A stretch of DNA of 64,000 bases from contig CBDEFM010000002.1 of the NCBI GenBank assembly GCA_965237415.1, positions 3,712,001 through 3,776,000 on the forward strand, read 5' to 3'. The notes beneath the pieces were generated by a model. The model saw nothing but the letters and a program-made list of their open reading frames with translations, had not been told where the DNA came from and ran no database searches. Made by a program: the position numbers and the translations under genes. Origin of the DNA: Alphaproteobacteria bacterium (lineage in GTDB: Bacteria > Pseudomonadota > Alphaproteobacteria > UBA828). This document shows positions 45,511-61,024 of this stretch, piece by piece (position 1 is the stretch's first letter; the number at the start of each line of letters is the position of its first letter).

Positions 45511-47331
45511 GCGATAGACGGCAATGCCATGGCCGTTGCGGAAGCTGCGTACCCGCGCTTCCGTCCAGGAGTTGCCTCGCCCGGTCTTCTTGCCGAGGCG
45601 GTTGAGCGTGGCCGCGATCCCGCCATCGGGCAGCTGCCTCGCCAGGCCACGAACCAGGTCGACCACCTCGGCGCTCGCCGCCCATCGATGCTGTCCCCTA
45701 CGGTTGCGTGGCACGCTCAGGCGCGTGTGGTCGCCGCCACGCCAGTGGAGAAGAAGGTCGATGCGGCCATCGGCCAGCGTGACGACGATCTCCGCGAGCA
45801 CCGACCGGAGGATGCCCTTGCGCGTCTCGGCGGTTGCATCGGGGTGCGTCCACGCCGTCGCAAGATCGTTACCCAGCGCCATCAGCCGCCCCTTCTCCTT
45901 GCACGACGGGACCTCGGGACGGGCGGCCGCGTTGGTGGCGAGCCGCTCCTCCTGCCGGCGCACCTCCGCCAGCCGGTCGTTCCACCGTCGCTCCAGCTCG
46001 GCCGCCACCAGGCGGTTGGCGGGATCGACGGTATCGTATTGGCGCTGTGCGAGTTCGGCCTCGTAGCGCGCCTGTGTCAGCGCCAGCTCCGCCTGCCGCC
46101 GGGTCTCGGTGTTGTCGCTCTCTCGCATCTCGATAGCGGCCAGCGCCGCCTCGACCCCGAGCGGGCACAGCAGTCGCAGCACGGCGTCGCCGACGGCGGC
46201 ATCCACCCGCAGGCCGCCGAAGCCGATGCAGCGCCCGGTTCCGTGGTTGACGTGTGCACCGTGGCAGCCGTAGCGGACGCAGTACCCCTTGGTCCCGCTG
46301 TAGTGGACATGCACGCGTCGGCCGCAGTGTCCGCAGCGCAGCAGGCCCGCAAGCAGCGCATCGCCTCGGCGGACGGCGCCCCTTGCCATCAGGCCCCGGC
46401 AGTTGGCGTTGTCGGCGATCAGCCGCTGGTTCCTCTCGAACTCGTCCCAGGAAACGTAGCCGTCGTGGTGATCCCGGATCAATACGTCCCACTCCGAGCG
46501 GTCGCGGCGGAAGCCGCGGGTCACGCGCTTGCGCCCGTTCTCGACGGTCACCCGGCTTTCCGTCCGGCCGAACGCGTACGCGCCGCCGTATACCGGGTTG
46601 GTCAACAGCTTGTGGACGGTGCCGTAGACCGGCGGCTTCCAGACAATGCGGCGCTCCTCGCCAACGATACTCACGGCCGGCAGCGGCACGTCCTCCTGCC
46701 TCAGCCACAGGTGAACCTGGCGGATGCTCCGGAACTCCGCGAACTTGCGGAACACGAGATCGATCGCCTCTCGCACGCGCCGATCGGGATCCTTGGCGAT
46801 CCGGTCGCGCCGGACCTTCACGTAGCCCACCGCGACGGTGAGGAACAGCTCGCCGCGGGACGCCTTCAGGCGAAGCGCTTCGAGCGAGCGCTGGCGCAGC
46901 GTCGAGAGCTCCATCTCCGACAGCGTCCCCTTCATACCGAGCAACAGCCGGTCGTTCGGCAGGCGAGGATCGTACAAGCCGTCATCGTCGCCCAGCAGAC
47001 AGCCCACAAGCGCGCAGAACTCCAGCAACGTGTGCCAGTCACGGCCGTTTCGAGCGAGCCTCGAAGCCTCCAGCGACAGCACGATGCCGACACGCCCTTC
47101 GCAGATCGACACCAGCAGCCGTTCGAAGCCCGGCCGCGACGTCCCGCCGCCGGAGCGGCCGAGATCCTCGTCGATCACCACGGGCTCGTCCCAGCCCAGG
47201 CCGCGGGCCCGATCCGCAAGTCCATACTGACGGCGGCGGCTCTCGTGATTGTTCCGCAGCTGATCCGGCGTCGACTGCCGGATGTAGACGACCGCGTCGC
47301 GCGCCAGGTGGTCAGGCGCGATCTTGTTCAT
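45511..47331 (-). pseudogene. Large serine recombinase, C-terminally truncated
   Basis: YIRQST, DEDLGRSG, SRLARN, CGHC zinc ribbon, coiled coil; diverges from copy 2 after GIAVYR. Confidence 0.88.
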
Positions 47332-47497
47332 CGCCTGCCTCCTTCTCCGTGGCCGTCCCGTCCGCCATGTCCTCGGTCGGGTTCGTCGCCGCTTCGAGCA
47401 GCAGCGCCGCAAGCATCGGGATCACCGCCCCGCGCATCGCCGGCGTCAGTGTCGGACCCGGCTCCAGCTGGTCCAGAAGGTCCCCCTGTCTTCCCAT
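47312..47497 (-). CDS. Small ORF2 of recombinase element copy 1
   Basis: MGRQGDLLDQLEPGP...AALLLEAA...EAGDEQDRA, conserved in both copies, GGAG upstream. Confidence 0.6.
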   Translation of the reverse strand: MGRQGDLLDQLEPGPTLTPAMRGAVIPMLAALLLEAATNPTEDMADGTATEKEAGDEQDRA

Positions 47498-47798
47498 GTC
47501 GCTCTCCCAAGTCCATGTGGGAGGGCAATGGTAGAACGGCGTCAAGCACCGAACGGAGGTCGCGCAAAGCGACCAGCGCGACGCGCGGCCGATCCGTCAC
47601 CGTCATCGCCGACGCGTCCGGGGAACACATCCAGGTCGGTATCTGCGCCAATGTGCCGTCCGGCTGGCGGACGACGTAGATCATGATCCCTTTGAAGCGG
47701 TGGCGCCGAACCACCTCCACGCGCTGGCCCGTCCGCGGGTGGAAGGGGTAGTGGATCTTGACCGGATCGCCCTGATAGCGGGCAGTATGTGGCTGTTC
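47328..47798 (-). CDS. ORF1 of element copy 1 (YPFHP-motif protein), open to the att junction with no start
   Basis: EQPHTARYQGDPVKIHYPFHPRTGQ...IPTWM; stop overlaps the recombinase ATG. Confidence 0.7.
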   Translation of the reverse strand, partial: EQPHTARYQGDPVKIHYPFHPRTGQRVEVVRRHRFKGIMIYVVRQPDGTLAQIPTWMCSPDASAMTVTDRPRVALVALRDLRSVLDAVLPLPSHMDLGERHGKTGGPSGPAGAGSDTDAGDARGGDPDACGAAARSGDEPDRGHGGRDGHGEGGRR

Positions 47799-48235
47799 CG
47801 ACCGGCACGGGCAAGACCCATGTCGCCCTGGGGCTCGGGCTGGCCGCCTGCCAGAGGGGCCTCTCTACGGGCTTCACCACGGCCGCCGCGCTCGTGCACG
47901 AGTTGATGGAAGCCCGCGACGAGCGCCGCCTCCTGCGGCTCCAGAAGCAGATGGTCGCCTGCACGCTGCTAATCATCGACGAGTTGGGCTTCGTGCCGCT
48001 GAGCAAGACCGGCGCCGAGCTTCTGTTCGAGCTGATCTCGCAGCGCTACGAGCGGGGCGCCACGCTCATCACCTCCAACCTCCCCTTCGACGAATGGACC
48101 GGGACCTTCGGCTCCGAGCGCCTGACCGGGGCGCTGCTCGACCGTCTCACCCATCACGTCAACATCCTCGAGATGAACGGCGACAGCTACCGCCTCAGCC
48201 AGAGCCGCGCCCGCAGAAACAGCGCCGATAGCTGA
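47798..48235 (+). pseudogene. istB: IS21 istB C-terminal half (Walker A onward)
   Basis: PTGTGKTH, LLIIDELG, RYERG, TSNLPF, LLDRLTHH, GDSYR. Confidence 0.92.
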
Positions 48236-54883: not shown

Positions 54884-55908
54884 TGTTAACGGCGGAGGAA
54901 TAATGCTCCACGCGGAGCGATCGGACGGTCCGGTCGCGGCGGCGCAAAAATGCGCCAACCATGGTCCTTTGTCGGTTGCGACGAGGGGCGGGGGATGTAC
55001 GGCGTGGAGCTCTATGCGGCGGTTCGACTGGCGGTTGTCGACGAGGGTTTGAGCCATCACGAGGCGGGCCGTCGGTTCGGCATCGACCGTCGCACGGTGA
55101 AGAAGATGCTGAGCTACTCGGCGCCGCCGGGCTACCGCCGGACGAAGCCGGTCAGGCGGCCCAAGCTGGACGGGTTCACCGGCATCGTCGACGCGATCCT
55201 GGAGGCGGACACGGATCCGGATGTGCCGCGCAAGCAGCGCCACACGGCGCACCGGATCTTCGAGCGGCTGCGGGACGAGTACGGGTTCACCGGCGGCTAT
55301 ACCATCCAGACCGTGTGAAAACGTCATTGAATTCAGATTTTCGAGTAAGTCTGCTTGATTTCTGAAAAGTGCAGCCTGCTAAGTCATTGATTTCATTAAC
55401 ACTGAAAATTCAACCAATGGGCTGAAATCACATTTCGAGCGATTCTCCGACGTTTTGACACAGTCTGCATCGTGAAGGACTATGTGCGTTCCCGGCGGCA
55501 ATCGACGCGCGAGGCCTTCGTTCCACTGCATCACCCGCCGGGCCATGCCCAGGTCGACTTCGGCGAGGCGGTGGTGGAGCTGCGGGGGCAGCGGGAGAAG
55601 GTCGCCTTCTTCTGCCTGATCCTGCCCCATTCCAACGTCTGGTTCGTCAAGGCCTATCCGAGGGAGACGACCGAGGCCTTCCTCGACGGCCATGTCAGCG
55701 CCTTCGCCTTCCTCGGCGGGGTTCCGCGCTCGATCCTCTACGACAACACCACCCTTGCGGTGGCGCGGATCCTGGGCGACGGCACGCGCCGCAGGACGCA
55801 GGCGTTCTCACATCTTCAGTCGCACTACCTGTTCCGCGACCGCTTCGGCCGGCCCGGCAAAGGCAACGACAAGGGGAAGGTGGAGGCCCTGGTGAAGACG
55901 GCGCGGCG
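54884..55908 (+). mobile_element. IS21 copy A: left end plus truncated, MITE-interrupted istA
   Basis: TGTTAACGGCGG end; istA from 54995 nearly identical to copy B, cut at KTARR. Confidence 0.9.
55307..55467. mobile_element. 161-bp MITE with IS1182-like ends and 4-bp TSD CATC
   Basis: CAGACCGTGTGAAAACGTC...GACGTTTTGACACAGTCTG; CATC at 55303 and 55468; empty site seen in istA copy B. Confidence 0.9.
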
Positions 55909-56090
55909 TGTCAACGGCGGCGAGATTATGTACCGGCGCGGCGGCGTAAAAATGTACCACGGGCTCGGTGGTAGCTTGTCCGCGTAGTCCACGGGAGGGA
56001 CCCGCGCGCGCGGGTCGACGCGCCCTGTGCGCGGCTGGCGGCGGCCCGCGCGTGGGTGGGGCCTATGGGCCCACGGGGACAAGCGGGGGG

Positions 56091-56528
56091 TTATTCGGAC
56101 GGGCGCTGGCGTCGCGATCGGCTCTGCCTGAGCCGGTAGCTGTCTGCGTTCATCTCCAGGATATGGACATGGTGGGTGATGCGGTCGAGCAGCGCGCCGG
56201 TGAGGCGCTCGCTGGCGAAGACCGTTGTCCATTCCTGGAAGGGCAGGTTTGAGGTCACGATTGTGGCGCCGTTTTCGTAGCGCCGGCTGAAGACGTCGAA
56301 CAGCAGTTCGCTTCCGGTCTGCGAGAGGGGCACGTAGCCGAGCTCGTCGACGATCAGGAGATTGACCCTGGCGAGCTGGTCCTGGAGGCGGAGGAGCCTC
56401 TTCTCGTCGCGCGCCTCGATCATCTCGTGGACCAGGTGAGAGGCGGTGGTGAAGCGCACGGAGAGGCCCTTCTGGCAGGCGGCAAGCCCGAGGGCGAGCG
56501 CGACATGCGTCTTGCCGACGCCTGACGG
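56091..56528 (-). pseudogene. istB: istB C-terminal half
   Basis: PSGVGKTH, LLIVDELG, TSNLPF, LLDRITHH, DSYR. Confidence 0.92.
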
Positions 56529-56998
56529 AACAGCCACACACTGCCCGATACCAGGGCGGTCCGACGAAGATCCACTACCCCTTCCACCCCCGCACGGGCC
56601 AGCGCGTGGAAGTGGTTCGGCGCCACCGCTTCAAGGGGACCATGATCTACGTCGTCCGCCAGCCGGATGGCACGCTGGCGCAGATACCGACCTGGATGTG
56701 CTTTCCAGACGCGGCGGCGATGACGGTGACGGATCAGCCGCGGATCGCGCTGGACGCCCTGCGCGACCTCCGTTCGGACATCGACGCTGTTCTACCATCG
56801 CCCTCCCGCATGGATTTGGGAGGGCGACATGGGAAGACAGGGAGAGCTGTTGGAACTACTGGAGCCGGGTCCGGCACTCACGCCGGCGATGCGAGGGGCG
56901 GTAATCCCGATACTGGCGGCGCTGCTGCTCGAAGCGGCAGCGAACCCGACGGAGGACATGGCGGACGGGACGGCCACGGAGAAGGAGGCGGGCGATGA
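56528..56998 (+). CDS. ORF1 of element copy 2 (YPFHP-motif protein); start codon located at 59073
   Basis: EQPHTARYQGGPTKIHYPFHPRTGQ...; TGA overlaps the recombinase ATG. Confidence 0.72.
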   Translation, partial: EQPHTARYQGGPTKIHYPFHPRTGQRVEVVRRHRFKGTMIYVVRQPDGTLAQIPTWMCFPDAAAMTVTDQPRIALDALRDLRSDIDAVLPSPSRMDLGGRHGKTGRAVGTTGAGSGTHAGDARGGNPDTGGAAARSGSEPDGGHGGRDGHGEGGGR

Positions 56999-57014
56999 AC
57001 AAGATCGCGCCTGA
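56829..57014 (+). CDS. Small ORF2 of element copy 2
   Basis: GGAGG RBS; MGRQGELLELLEPGP...EAGDEQDRA. Confidence 0.6.
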   Translation: MGRQGELLELLEPGPALTPAMRGAVIPILAALLLEAAANPTEDMADGTATEKEAGDEQDRA

Positions 57015-59054
57015 CCATCTGGCGCGCGAGGCGGTCGTCTACATTCGGCAGTCGACGCCGGACCAGCTGCGGCACAACCACGAGAGCCGCCGTCGTCAGT
57101 ACGGCCTTGCGGATCGGGCTCGCGGTCTGGGCTGGGACGAGCCCGTGATTATCGACGAGGATCTCGGCCGCTCTGGAGGCGGAACGTCGCGGCCGGGCTT
57201 CGATCGGCTGCTGCTGGCGATCTGCGAAGGGCGCGTCGGCATCGTGCTGTCGCTGGAGGCTTCGAGGCTCGCTCGAAACGGCCGCGACTGGCACACGCTG
57301 CTGGAGTTCTGCGCGCTTGTGGGCTGCCTGCTGGGCGACGAGGACGGCTTGTATGATCCTCGCCTGCCGAACGACCGTCTATTGCTGGGTATGAAGGGGA
57401 CGCTGTCGGAGATGGAGCTCTCGACGCTGCGCCAGCGCTCGCTCGAGGCGCTGCGCCTGAAGGCGTCCCGTGGCGAGCTATTCCTCAGCGTCGCGGTGGG
57501 CTACGTGAAGGTCCGATGCGACCGGATCGCCAAGGATCCCGACCGGCGCGTGCGTGAGGCAATCGATCTCGTGTTCCGCAAGTTCGCGGAGTTCCGGAGC
57601 ATCCGCCAGGTCCACCTCTGGCTGCGGCAGGAGGAAGTGCTGCTGCCGGCCGTCAGGATCGTTGGCAAGGAGCGCCATATTGTCTGGAAGCCGCCGGTCT
57701 ACGGCACCGTCCACAAGCTGATGACCAACCCCGTCTACGCCGGCGCGTACGCGTTTGGCCGGACGGAGAGCCGCGTGACCGTCGAGAACGGACGCAAGCG
57801 CGTCACGCGCGGCTTTCGCCGCGATCGCGCGGACTGGGACGTGTTGATCCGCGATCACCACGAAGGCTACGTTTCCTGGGACGAGTACGAGAGGAACCAG
57901 CGTCTGATCGCCGACAACGCCAACTGCGGGGCTTGATGGCAAGGGGCGCCGTGCGCCGCGGCGATGCGCTGCTCGCGGGCCTGCTGCGCTGCGGACACTG
58001 CGGCCGGCGTGTGCACGTCCACTACAGCGGCACCAAGGGGTACTGCGTCCGTTACGGCTGCCAAGGCGCGCATGTCAACCACGGCACCAGGCCGTGCATC
58101 GCCTTCGGCGGCTTGCGCGTGGATACTGCGGTCGGCGATGCAGTGCTGCGACTGCTATCTCCGCTCGGCGTCGAAGCGGCGCTGGCCGCCATCGAGACCC
58201 GTGAGAGCGACAACGCCGAGATCCGACGGCAGGCGGAGCTGGCGCTGACGCAGGCGCGCTACGAGGCCGATCTGGCACAGCGCCAATACGATGCCGTCGA
58301 TCCAGCTAACCGCCTTGTCGCGGCCGAGCTGGAGCGACGGTGGAACGACCGGCTGGCGGATGTGCGCCGGCAGGAGGAGCGGCTCGCCGCCACTGCGGCC
58401 GCCCGTCCGGAGGCACCGTCATGCGCGGAGAAACAGCGCTTGATGGCGCTGGGCGATGATCTCTCGACGGCGTGGTCGCGCCCCGATGCCACCGCCGAGA
58501 CGCGCAAGGCCATCCTGCGCGCGGTTCTGGAGGAGATCGTCGTCACGCTGGCCGATGGCTGCGTTGACCTTCTTCTCCACTGGCGTGGCGGCGACCACAC
58601 GCGTCTGAGCGTGCCGCGCAACCGTAGGGGACAGCATCGCTGGGCGGCGAGCGCCGAGGTGGTCGACCTGGTTCGCGGACTGGCGAGGCAGCTGCCGGAC
58701 GGCGCGATCGCGGCCACGCTCAACCGCCTCGGCAAGAAGACCGGGCGAGGCAACTCGTGGACGGAAGCGCGGGTGCGCACCTTCCGCAATAGCCGTGGCG
58801 TTGCCGTCTTCCGATCAGGCGAGATGGCGGAGCGGGGCGAGCTGACGCTGACCGATGCCGCCGCACGGCTCGGCATCAGCAAGATGACGGTGCTGCGGTT
58901 GATTGCGGGCGGCACAATCGACGCCACGCAGGTGTGCAAGGGAGGGCCATGGGCCATCCCGGAGGCGCTGATAGACGCCCTGTACGGCACTGACCTGCGC
59001 CAATCGCGCCCGCTAACAGCCGATCCGAACCAGGAACAGCTGGATTTTCAATAA
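56995..59054 (+). pseudogene. Large serine recombinase with a 1-bp frameshift near 57927
   Basis: YIRQST catalytic Ser, CGHC zinc ribbon, coiled coil, C-terminal HTH LTLTDAAARLGISKMTVLRLI; TGCGGGGCTTGA versus TGCCGGGGCCTGA in copy 1. Confidence 0.9.
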
Positions 59055-59089
59055 CGTAGCGAGGTGTGCATTATGCACTCGGACTCGAG

Positions 59090-59418
59090 GGCCCGAGCAG
59101 GATCGCGTTCTCGCGCCGCTCGATCCACTCGCAGCGCGCCAACTCCAGCACCTGCGCCTTGTTCAGCGCGGGGATGGCCTTGAAGTCGAAGCTGTCGAGG
59201 CTCTTGGCGACCGGGAACTTCGCCGCCTTGATGCGCCGCTCGACCATGCGCCGTTCGCGATCGATCAGTTCCAGCTCCACCAGCCGGGCCAGGAACTGAA
59301 CATGATCCAGGGCCTCGGCCGCGCACTGGCGCGCCAGTTTCTCGTACTCGCGCAGAAAGGTCGGCAGCTTCAGCTTCTTCAGATGATGCTCGAGCAGGAT
59401 GCGCGGCGCCTCAGCCAT
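59090..59418 (-). pseudogene. istB: istB N-terminal half
   Basis: LKKLKLP, RRIKAAKFP..KSLDSFDF, ENAILLGP then element sequence. Confidence 0.92.
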
Positions 59419-60907
59419 GGCCGGCGGCCAGCAGGGTGGCGTAATCGGCGCTACGGGTGGCGGCGACGAAGGGCTGGGGGAGGTGCGGATAGCGTGTCAG
59501 GTCGAGACGGGCCGGCCGCTTCTCGATGCGCGCCAGCAGCAGGTGCTTGACCGCATCGAAGCCGATCACGCGCCGCTTCACCGCGTCCTGCACCGCGGCC
59601 GTCACCTGGCGCTCCGGAAAGTCCTCCAGCAGGCGCAGCACCTGGATGTATTCGCGCTTGCCGCGCGGCCCGAAGCGGGCTTCGAGGAGGCGGCGCAGCG
59701 TGTCGAAGGCCGGATCGAGCTTCCACCCCCGCAGCGGCGCCGCCTGGTCCAGGGCGCCCGGCTTCCTCTCCAGCAACGACAGATAGTGCAGCGGGTCGTA
59801 GACGACGTCGCCGCGGACATAGGAGCGCCTATGGCGGGCGACGATCTCGGCGCCGAGCGCGATCTCGACCCGGTCGACATAGCCCTTGATCGTCACCTTC
59901 TTGTGGGCGTGCACCGCCGGCGCCGAGTAGTCCACCAACCGGTAGCGCACCAGGGCCGTCGAGGAGACCTGGCCCGGCACATGCTCGCAGGCCTCGAAGG
60001 GAGAAGCCGGCAGATCGCGCAGGGCGTCGAGATCGGCGAGCAGCGCCGCCGCCTGCTCCCCTGCCTCCAGCGCGTCGAGCCGCTCCAGGCACCGAGCCAT
60101 CAGCCGCTCGTTCAGGACCGACAGGTCATGCACCTTCGGGATCGGAACCATGAACCGGCGCCGCGCCGTCTTCACCAGGGCCTCGACCTTGCCCTTGTCG
60201 TTGCCCTTGCCGGGCCGGCCGAAGCGGTCGCGGAACAGGTAGTGCGACTGAAGATGTGAGAACGCCTGCGTCCTGCGGCGCGTGCCGTCCCCCAGGATCC
60301 GCGCCACCGCAAGGGTGGTGTTGTCGTAGAGGATCGAGCGCGGAACCCCGCCGAGGAAGGCGAAGGCGCTGACATGGCCGTCGAGGAAGGCCTCGGTCGT
60401 CTCCCTCGGATAGGCCTTGACGAACCAGACGTTGGAATGGGGCAGGATCAGGCAGAAGAAGGCAACCTTCTCCCGCCTGCCTCCGACCTCGACCGTCGCC
60501 TCGCCGAAGTCGACCTGGGCATGGCCCGGCGGGTGATGCAGTGGAACGAAGGCCTCGCGCGTCGATTGCCGCCGGGAACGCACATAGTCCTTCACGATGG
60601 TGTAGCCGCCGGTGAACCCGTGCTCGTCCCGTAGCCGCTCGAAGATCCGATGCGCCGTGTGACGCTGCTTGCGCGGCACGTCCGGATCCGTGTCCGCCTC
60701 CAGGATCGCGTCGACGATGCCGGTGAACCCGTCCAGCTTGGGCCGCCTGACCGGCTTCGTCCGGCGGTAGCCCGGCGGTGCCGAGTAGCTCAGCATCTTC
60801 TTCACCGTCCGGCGGTCGATGCCGAACCGCCGGCCCGCCTCGTGATGGCTCAGACCCTCGTCGACAACCGCCAGTCGAACCGCCGCATAGAGCTCCACGC
60901 CGTACAT
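59411..60907 (-). CDS. istA: IS21 transposase IstA, intact
   Basis: HTAHRIFERL, PG..QVDFG, YDN, KGKVE. Confidence 0.95.
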   Translation of the reverse strand: MYGVELYAAVRLAVVDEGLSHHEAGRRFGIDRRTVKKMLSYSAPPGYRRTKPVRRPKLDGFTGIVDAILEADTDPDVPRKQRHTAHRIFERLRDEHGFTGGYTIVKDYVRSRRQSTREAFVPLHHPPGHAQVDFGEATVEVGGRREKVAFFCLILPHSNVWFVKAYPRETTEAFLDGHVSAFAFLGGVPRSILYDNTTLAVARILGDGTRRRTQAFSHLQSHYLFRDRFGRPGKGNDKGKVEALVKTARRRFMVPIPKVHDLSVLNERLMARCLERLDALEAGEQAAALLADLDALRDLPASPFEACEHVPGQVSSTALVRYRLVDYSAPAVHAHKKVTIKGYVDRVEIALGAEIVARHRRSYVRGDVVYDPLHYLSLLERKPGALDQAAPLRGWKLDPAFDTLRRLLEARFGPRGKREYIQVLRLLEDFPERQVTAAVQDAVKRRVIGFDAVKHLLLARIEKRPARLDLTRYPHLPQPFVAATRSADYATLLAAGHG

Positions 60908-61024
60908 CTCCTGCCCCTCGTCGCAACCGACAAGGGACCATGAGTGGCACAATTTTGCGCCGCCGCGACCGGACCGTCCGGTCGCTCCGCGTGGAGCATT
61001 ATTCCTCCGCCGTTAACAGGGGAG

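Follow-up and report, generated by a model that had tools for sequence, protein, structure and literature searches.

At the circle or tandem junctions of the insertion sequences IS911, IS30, IS2 and IS21, which are moved by DDE transposases, a junction promoter is formed with its -35 in one end and its -10 in the other. The serine transposases of the IS607 family are small, have an inverted domain order and show little target specificity. For Tn4451 and Tn4453, moved by the large resolvase TnpX, the joint of the excised circle is said to form a promoter for the recombinase gene. ICEclc and ICEKp1, two integrative and conjugative elements (ICEs), carry state-dependent promoters (Pcir and P3'end, respectively) that act on the integrase gene after circularisation (PMC13023037). 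In the SSV-type 'suicidal' integrases the att site lies within the integrase gene, an arrangement called exclusively archaeal in a review (PMC8371274). Here we analyse a stretch of 64,000 nucleotides (nt) from an alphaproteobacterium of the lineage UBA828 (assembly GCA_965237415.1, contig CBDEFM010000002.1, positions 3,712,001 to 3,776,000; hereafter the window), in which positions 56527-59091 hold a minimal, site-specific mobile element with a large serine recombinase (LSR) as its driver, inserted in the Walker A codons of an IS21 istB gene. The first gene of this element, ORF1 (ORF, open reading frame), matches DUF5372 and is split: its Shine-Dalgarno (SD) sequence, its ATG and its first five to six codons lie at the right end, its body at the left end, and the gene is whole only when the element is excised as a circle. 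From sequence and comparison, we put the probability of our reading as a whole at about 0.8.

As integrated, ORF1 begins at GAA 56528; its frame meets a stop upstream at about 56450 and runs open from there across the left junction. The IHYPFHP motif, with which the Pfam model opens, precedes GTG 56606, the first ATG, GTG or TTG of ORF1. At the right end, GAGGTG-N6-ATG (ATG 59073) is found 17 nt from the core. From this ATG to the end of the core there are 19 nt and, with the ends joined through a single GG, the ATG is in frame with GAA 56528, while in the integrated state it opens 36 codons into antisense istB and then meets TGA. The first-pass annotation, made by a model from the letters alone, had claimed an ORF1 open to the left junction with no start upstream of its YPFHP motif, a ribosome-binding site and ATG at the right end, an in-frame connection through one GG and a stop in antisense istB after about 36 codons, and all of these are borne out. 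It had also described the differences between two copies at the left end as mostly synonymous, and between the window element (copy 1) and a second, 90% identical copy (copy 2) we count five synonymous and two non-synonymous codon differences over joined codons 7-32, with 1/2/6 nucleotide differences at codon positions 1/2/3. Its family assignment held for DUF5372, since PF17342 matches ORF1 at 26.4 bits (cut-off 25), over profile positions 1-43 of 78 only, but not for Y4bD-like proteins, for which there was neither an NCBIfam match nor a link in the literature. A whole-genome search with PF17342 scored 27.3 bits at the same stretch, above the cut-off. No NCBIfam family was found for ORF1 or ORF2 (E<=0.01), a PDB sequence search gave no remote similarity (best E=7) and a PHROGs search gave nothing below E=0.03.

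The junctions are consistent with movement by the recombinase. The IS21 helper-ATPase gene istB, on the minus strand, is cut by the element within its Walker A codons, and two intact istB paralogues in the same genome read an unbroken LGPSGTGK[TS] at the homologous place. With a slash after the core, attL is ...ctgacGG/aacagcc and attR is ...ctcgagGG/cccgag; GG are the only letters in common. The empty site can be seen in contigs of three public runs (X1, X2 and X4), which connect 56523 directly to 59087 and leave out 2563 nt, with 2 nt that could belong to either side. Because of this joint, we take one GG to be common to both ends and the circle to measure 2563 bp. Such a joint is the mark of a conservative insertion by a serine recombinase at a 2-nt core, without target duplication past the core, as is characteristic of LSR integrases. 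The domains agree with this: resolvase (PF00239, 80.6 bits), Recombinase (PF07508, 46.9) and zinc beta-ribbon (PF13408, 36.6) matches are present on the two halves of the window recombinase, the intact L015, L028 and L044 have the same LSR composition, and a C-terminal HTH_17 is common to all recombinases tested. The three element genes overlap and are all on the plus strand. A consensus scan of the element in its integrated form returned no sigma-70-like sites and no intrinsic terminators.

We compared the frame across the ends in related elements from three sources: species-representative genomes, which gave L013 and L014; PLSDB plasmids searched by tblastn (114 records at 40-56% identity), from which 15 stretches were taken; and whole-genome scans with the Pfam model, which matched 7 of 401 sampled genomes of the phylum and included two further loci in the present genome. 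ORF1 played no part in placing the attB site, which was chosen so that the conserved motif of the interrupted target protein became whole again. Offsets from -9 to +9 were run by script for the istB insertions, and offset 0 restored N-[LI]-[LI]-x-x-G-x-x-G-x-G-K-[ST] in 10 of 10; other offsets did so only through a spurious glycine supplied by the element in a garbled frame or, for L015, at -3, which leaves the frame unchanged. The remaining targets were restored by hand: a tyrosine recombinase gene in L025 (cut LLLG/H), IS66 tnpC in L027 (RPQA/LNRKN), IS21 istA in L028 (RDKA/KVE), a PAPS-reductase-like gene of the window's genome in L044 (...ALADW/WIEQE) and an IS110 transposase gene in L049 (VPGIG/P). 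An automatic test for the longest ORF across rejoined flanks was dropped, since G+C-rich DNA has many open frames and the offsets could not be distinguished. The informative elements were the window, L013, L015, L016, L019, L020, L021, L022, L024, L025, L026, L027, L028, L044 and L049. We did not count those with no right end in the stretch (L014, L017, L018, L023, L043, L046, L047, copy 2 and the partial copies L005-L007), nor L045 (G178), whose attB could not be rebuilt from a right flank in an rve transposase (YYPQSK/) and an unrelated left flank; in L045 the in-frame reading shares TT at nt 15-16 and the out-of-frame reading shares TTG.

The right-end ATG was in frame with ORF1 in all fifteen informative elements, with a constant spacing of the ATG, nine codons and [T/N/S]-A as codons 11-12. 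The ORF1s tested range from 89% identity down to below 45% and come in two gene architectures. Counted from the ATG, the nucleotides common to attL and attR are 18-19 in the window and L013, 15-16 in L015, L020, L024 and L049, 15-17 in L016 and L027, 13-16 in L021, 17-19 in L019, 17-18 in L026, 15-19 in L025, 12-19 in L028 and 14-18 in L044. In L022 attL and attR have 1 nt in common, and its core is probably mutated. Grouped by target, core position or ORF1 identity below 60%, the fifteen amount to about 11 lineages.

The joined sequence also varies as a coding sequence would. Six close pairs differ over joined codons 1-32 by 12/16/45 nt at codon positions 1/2/3, and the right arms of L015 and L016 differ by two synonymous changes and nothing else. 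Protein-level conservation extends to the segment that precedes the motif, [QR]-x-H-[TNS]-A. Of the 15 elements, none has an ATG, GTG or TTG with a Shine-Dalgarno sequence from the core to the tenth codon beyond the motif; in six these codons are missing altogether, and those that do occur share no conserved position. The right-end block CAATRACRTAGCGAGGTGNGCATYATG, with its GAGGTG, is almost invariant among elements whose ORF1s are 44-56% identical, and a related block, GAGGTGYAGTATG, stands at the end of the canonical DUF5372-X-LSR elements. The first-pass annotation had proposed this comparison of the right-end start and left-end ORF1 across homologues, and had named a random frame, or an internal start with an unconserved segment upstream, as the outcomes that would speak against it; the homologues showed one frame, a conserved segment with third-position changes and no internal SD start.

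A profile search of 1.84 billion representative proteins yielded 1494 clusters at E<=1e-3, of which 424 reached E<=1e-10. In the 150 best of these 1494, the called N-termini scatter, with the conserved H at residue index 4 to 154, and many of the called proteins begin within flank sequence. Three in this set (P0065, P0051 and P0115) have N-termini that are right-arm-type peptides at exactly the predicted distance, and the first five residues of P0065 are the right-arm peptide of L024, 2.5 kb distant in the integrated element. Because these three carry junction-type N-termini, joined DNA (circle or tandem) would have been assembled somewhere in public data. A tblastn search of P0065 against plasmids gave no record with a junction-type N-terminus, the best being 66% identical. 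RefSeq leaves ORF1 unannotated in L015, L016, L019 and L020, begins it at a GTG or TTG composed of flank plus core in L018 and L049, and at an internal GTG in L028; the split would explain why pipelines miss ORF1 or misplace its start. Accordingly, the Pfam DUF5372 model starts at the motif, without [QR]-x-H-[TNS]-A, in line with the starts missed by annotators. Because ORF1 has no usable start when integrated and is whole in the 2563-bp circle, the complete gene very probably exists only in the excised circle (or a tandem), and full-length ORF1 would be a read-out of the excised state. The coordinates of the features are collected in Table 1.

Table 1. Features of the element, its flanks and the other loci of the same genome. 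Coordinates are positions in the window unless a contig is named.
Feature	Position	Strand	Details
Element	56527-59091	+	2563 bp; DUF5372 ORF1, small ORF2, large serine recombinase; strand is that of the genes
IS21 istB 3' part, left flank	56091-56526	-	from SGVGKTH on; carries one half of the Walker A
attL copy of 2-nt core GG	56527-56528	.	sole stretch common to attL and attR
ORF1 as integrated	56528-56998	+	156 codons; stop TGA falls within the ATGA that starts the recombinase
DUF5372 (PF17342) match in ORF1	56570-56698	+	residues 15-57; Pfam
ORF2	56829-57014	+	61 amino acids; own GGGAGGG; +1 frame in ORF1 tail; overlaps recombinase start by 20 nt
Recombinase, N-terminal 313 codons	56995-57936	+	Resolvase and Recombinase domains; ends at frameshift-caused stop
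1-nt deficit (one C missing)	57926-57927	+	copy 2 has the extra C
Recombinase, C-terminal part	57933-59054	+	zinc ribbon, coiled-coil, HTH_17/excisionase-type domain; stop TAA 59052-59054
Conserved right-end block CAATRACRTAGCGAGGTGNGCATY	59043-59072	+	holds Shine-Dalgarno GAGGTG 59061-59066
ATG and first 5 2/3 codons of ORF1 (right arm)	59073-59089	+	apart from the gene body when integrated
attR copy of core GG	59090-59091	.	junction letters and empty-site contigs
istB 5' part, right flank	59092-59418	-	up to ...ENAILLGP; from ORF list and intact paralogues
Copy 2 (L004)	45516-47799	-	90% identity; left junction in Walker A (PTGTGKT) of another istB; no right end
L044	G000:C2:2281000-2289000		intact, same split start
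L043	G000:C2:3085500-3093500		looks decayed

The small ORF2 is conserved as protein in 15 of 16 loci (none was found in L018). In relatives it has its own GGAGG and encodes 52-84 amino acids (aa), which include a ...DLF... motif and a hydrophobic helix and are acidic at the end, and it is called a hypothetical protein in the RefSeq plasmid annotation; P0002 and P0009, two close homologues, have ORF1 and ORF2 as a single in-frame fusion. Past the domain, another 50-60 codons of the ORF1 frame remain open across ORF2 in 16 of 16 loci, and in each the frame ends in RTGA (ATGA or GTGA) overlapping the recombinase start. As a control, 58-codon stretches in the same relative frame were taken from the recombinase genes of nine relatives, and 36% of them contain no stop. 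At its other end, the recombinase gene stops 0-21 nt ahead of the right-end ATG. An in-frame spacing of 18 nt is seen in the window (TAA 59052-59054 and ATG 59073), L013, L015, L016, L019, L022, L024, L026 and L049, and the stop and the ATG of L044 overlap in an ATGA. This proximity suggests that ribosomes terminating on the recombinase could reinitiate at ORF1 on transcripts running across the joint.

In the window, a frameshift splits the recombinase into pieces of 313 and 373 codons, while copy 2 and the relatives read through. The C is present after 57926 in contigs of X2 and X4 (at all depth) and X1 (78.5 of 680.9). The assembly holds three full copies, 100% identical and all with the frameshift, together with two left-end pieces, one right-end piece and copy 2; the missing C may be genuine, having spread along with the host IS21, or else a systematic error of the assembly. 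The left-end piece L005 sits at the same Walker A place in another istB variant (PPGAGKS). Copy L003 is flanked by different IS21 types on its left and right; L006 is a lone left end with L003's left-flank type, and L007 a lone right end with its right-flank type, which suggests that the genome was rearranged by recombination between element copies in different IS21s. Around the window element, an istA fragment (55472-55987, plus strand) adjoins the istB 3' part and a full istA (59411-60952, minus strand) lies to the right, which indicates nested or rearranged IS21 copies. The two further DUF5372 loci of this genome, L044 (75.5 bits) and L043 (82.1 bits), are canonical and have a second architecture, of DUF5372, an ORF of about 300-385 aa without a Pfam match and an LSR of about 784 aa.

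We found 24 public runs, all as Logan contigs, and compared X1, X2, X4 and X18 over 56300-59300. The contigs of these four runs cover the element and its empty site and contain no back-joint of the circle, which does not imply its absence, since contigs drop rare forms. A degenerate joint pattern for the ORF1-ORF2-LSR subfamily had no matches in JGI metagenome contigs, IMG/VR or the element's own genome. One 529-nt contig from X18, an RNA library (metatranscriptome), spans 56461-56989 over the left junction with 13 differences; it represents a related copy, is unstranded and may derive from DNA, and we do not use it as evidence.

Several observations weigh against our reading. Neither a circle junction, nor a transcript start, nor a peptide was seen in the data examined. 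The elements share ancestry, so fifteen of fifteen is not fifteen independent trials. The right-arm codons are loosely constrained, with four synonymous versus five non-synonymous changes in close pairs, and the recombinase has a strong GGAGG of its own, so its translation needs no coupling. With the frameshift in all full copies and copy 2 truncated, the switch may be inactive in this genome. Other observations would fit an expression of ORF1 in the integrated state, from an internal or non-canonical codon (GTG 56606, the conserved ATC/ATT ahead of the motif, a GTG or TTG near it) or from a codon in the flank, with the right-end GAGGTG-ATG being part of a recombinase binding site or the start of a short outward peptide. 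Thus, an ATG or GTG lies near the motif in L028, L044, L026 and L027 and in the close homologues P0001 and P0003, where an ATG directly precedes it; for the canonical DUF5372-X-LSR subfamily, annotators start the gene at a GTG close to the motif; eight clusters among the best 150 take an in-frame ATG from the target flank; the Pfam model can do without the N-terminal 14 residues for recognition of the domain; and the right-arm residues vary. Some expression of this kind could still occur. As the sole source of ORF1, however, it is quite improbable, as no internal start is conserved or has a Shine-Dalgarno sequence in the 15 elements, GTG 56606 falls inside the conserved domain, and the amino acids encoded ahead of the motif are conserved, with substitutions at third positions. 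Further, the joint stays in frame in 15 of 15 despite differing targets and a crossover that shifts by up to 6 nt, the distance from block to core is 14 or 17 nt, which is unexpected for a pure recombinase-binding motif, and junction-type N-termini occur among database proteins.

The in-frame layout could also be an inherited accident of attP geometry, a spacing that is dictated by the way the recombinase binds its site, happens to be a multiple of three and gives ORF1 an N-terminal extension without coding selection. A single ancestor would account for it, both arms must also serve as recombinase binding sites, and the DNA pattern ATG-NNN-CGG-GNN-CGG recurs in the right arms. Yet the core shifts relative to both motifs (nt 13-16, 15-16, 17-18 and 18-19) while the distance from the ATG to codon 11 stays at 30 nt, length differences downstream are whole codons, none of the 15 elements has an in-frame stop between the ATG and ORF1, and 45 of 73 differences fall at third positions, all of which leaves little room for such an accident. 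It is less credible again, indeed highly improbable, that ORF1 is a relic of decaying elements and its missing start a mark of lost function. The recombinases of the window copies are broken or truncated and some relatives are decayed (L014, L017, L018, L023, L027 and L043), but the same split is found with intact recombinases of 685-690 aa in L015, L016, L019, L020, L024, L025, L026 and L049, and the 1494 clusters of the family at E<=1e-3 retain invariant residues.

If ORF1 is indeed completed by the joint, the arrangement of the frames offers a way in which this could favour re-integration, for which we would offer slightly less than even odds. Recombinase transcripts leaving the right end would reach ORF1 only in the circle, where ribosomes arriving from the recombinase stop, or binding at GAGGTG, would start ORF1 at the right-end ATG. 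They would then run through the ORF1 tail across ORF2 and end in the RTGA at the recombinase start, and the additional recombinase made in the non-replicating circle would favour re-integration. Such a scheme would do by translation what joint promoters do by transcription in Tn4451 and some ICEs. The protein made from ORF1 probably works together with the recombinase towards integration, although this is a guess, and ORF2 is a candidate for a small directionality factor. A bolder proposal joins these ideas, and as a whole we consider it doubtful: DUF5372 genes would as a rule be split across the attP of small LSR elements, forming a promoter-independent, purely topological sensor of the integration state; translation of ORF1 in the circle would silence the embedded ORF2 and hand over to the recombinase start, so that the integrated element would make ORF2 and recombinase (excision) and the circle ORF1 and recombinase (integration); and the elements would be dedicated hyperparasites homing into the catalytic-motif codons of mobile-element genes (IS21 istA and istB, IS66, IS110 and IS3/IS481-type transposases, and tyrosine recombinases).

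The insertion targets, ten of which are in the Walker A of IS21 istB, make the elements look like parasites of other mobile elements; besides the PAPS-reductase-like gene, the remaining targets are istA (DKA/KVE), IS66 tnpC, the IS110 transposase, the tyrosine recombinase and, in L045, the rve-type transposase. If motif-coding targets in mobile elements are a speciality of this family, it would be a clear case of mobile elements parasitising mobile elements. LSRs are in use as tools for genome integration, and few of them have a known directionality factor; the compact ORF1-ORF2-LSR module is one in which the control of LSR directionality could be dissected. At the same time DUF5372, a domain of unknown function, gains a concrete and testable context.

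A literature search, with subscription journals and supplements outside its scope, found neither this element family nor the split gene described. Expression that depends on the integration state is already known, from joint promoters and, in archaea, from integrase genes cut by their own att site. What would be new here is that a bacterial serine-recombinase family splits an accessory coding sequence, whose start and body meet only in the circle. Like the IS607 family, the present elements are minimal and have a serine recombinase as their only enzyme, but their enzymes are LSRs of 685-790 aa with a zinc ribbon and a C-terminal HTH_17, and their targets are defined and motif-coding. As in the junction promoters of insertion sequences, a circle or tandem junction would turn on expression needed for integration, although those junctions have no coding sequence common to both ends. 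With ICEclc and ICEKp1 the element shares a signal at one end that can serve a gene at the opposite end only once the element has been excised and circularised; there the control is transcriptional, in elements of tens of kb moved by a tyrosine recombinase, whereas here it would be translational, in a 2.5-kb LSR element, and act on a DUF5372 gene. The SSV type likewise has the att site inside an element gene that is whole only as a circle; in those archaeal elements it is the tyrosine integrase that is split, while in the present bacterial case the serine recombinase is kept whole (56995-59054) and the accessory gene is split. The resemblance to Tn4451 lies in a small LSR-moved element with a non-replicating circle, whose joint makes an expression signal that is absent when integrated; in the present element, however, the joint completes a coding sequence, bringing the SD, the ATG and five to six codons to an accessory gene that precedes the recombinase gene.

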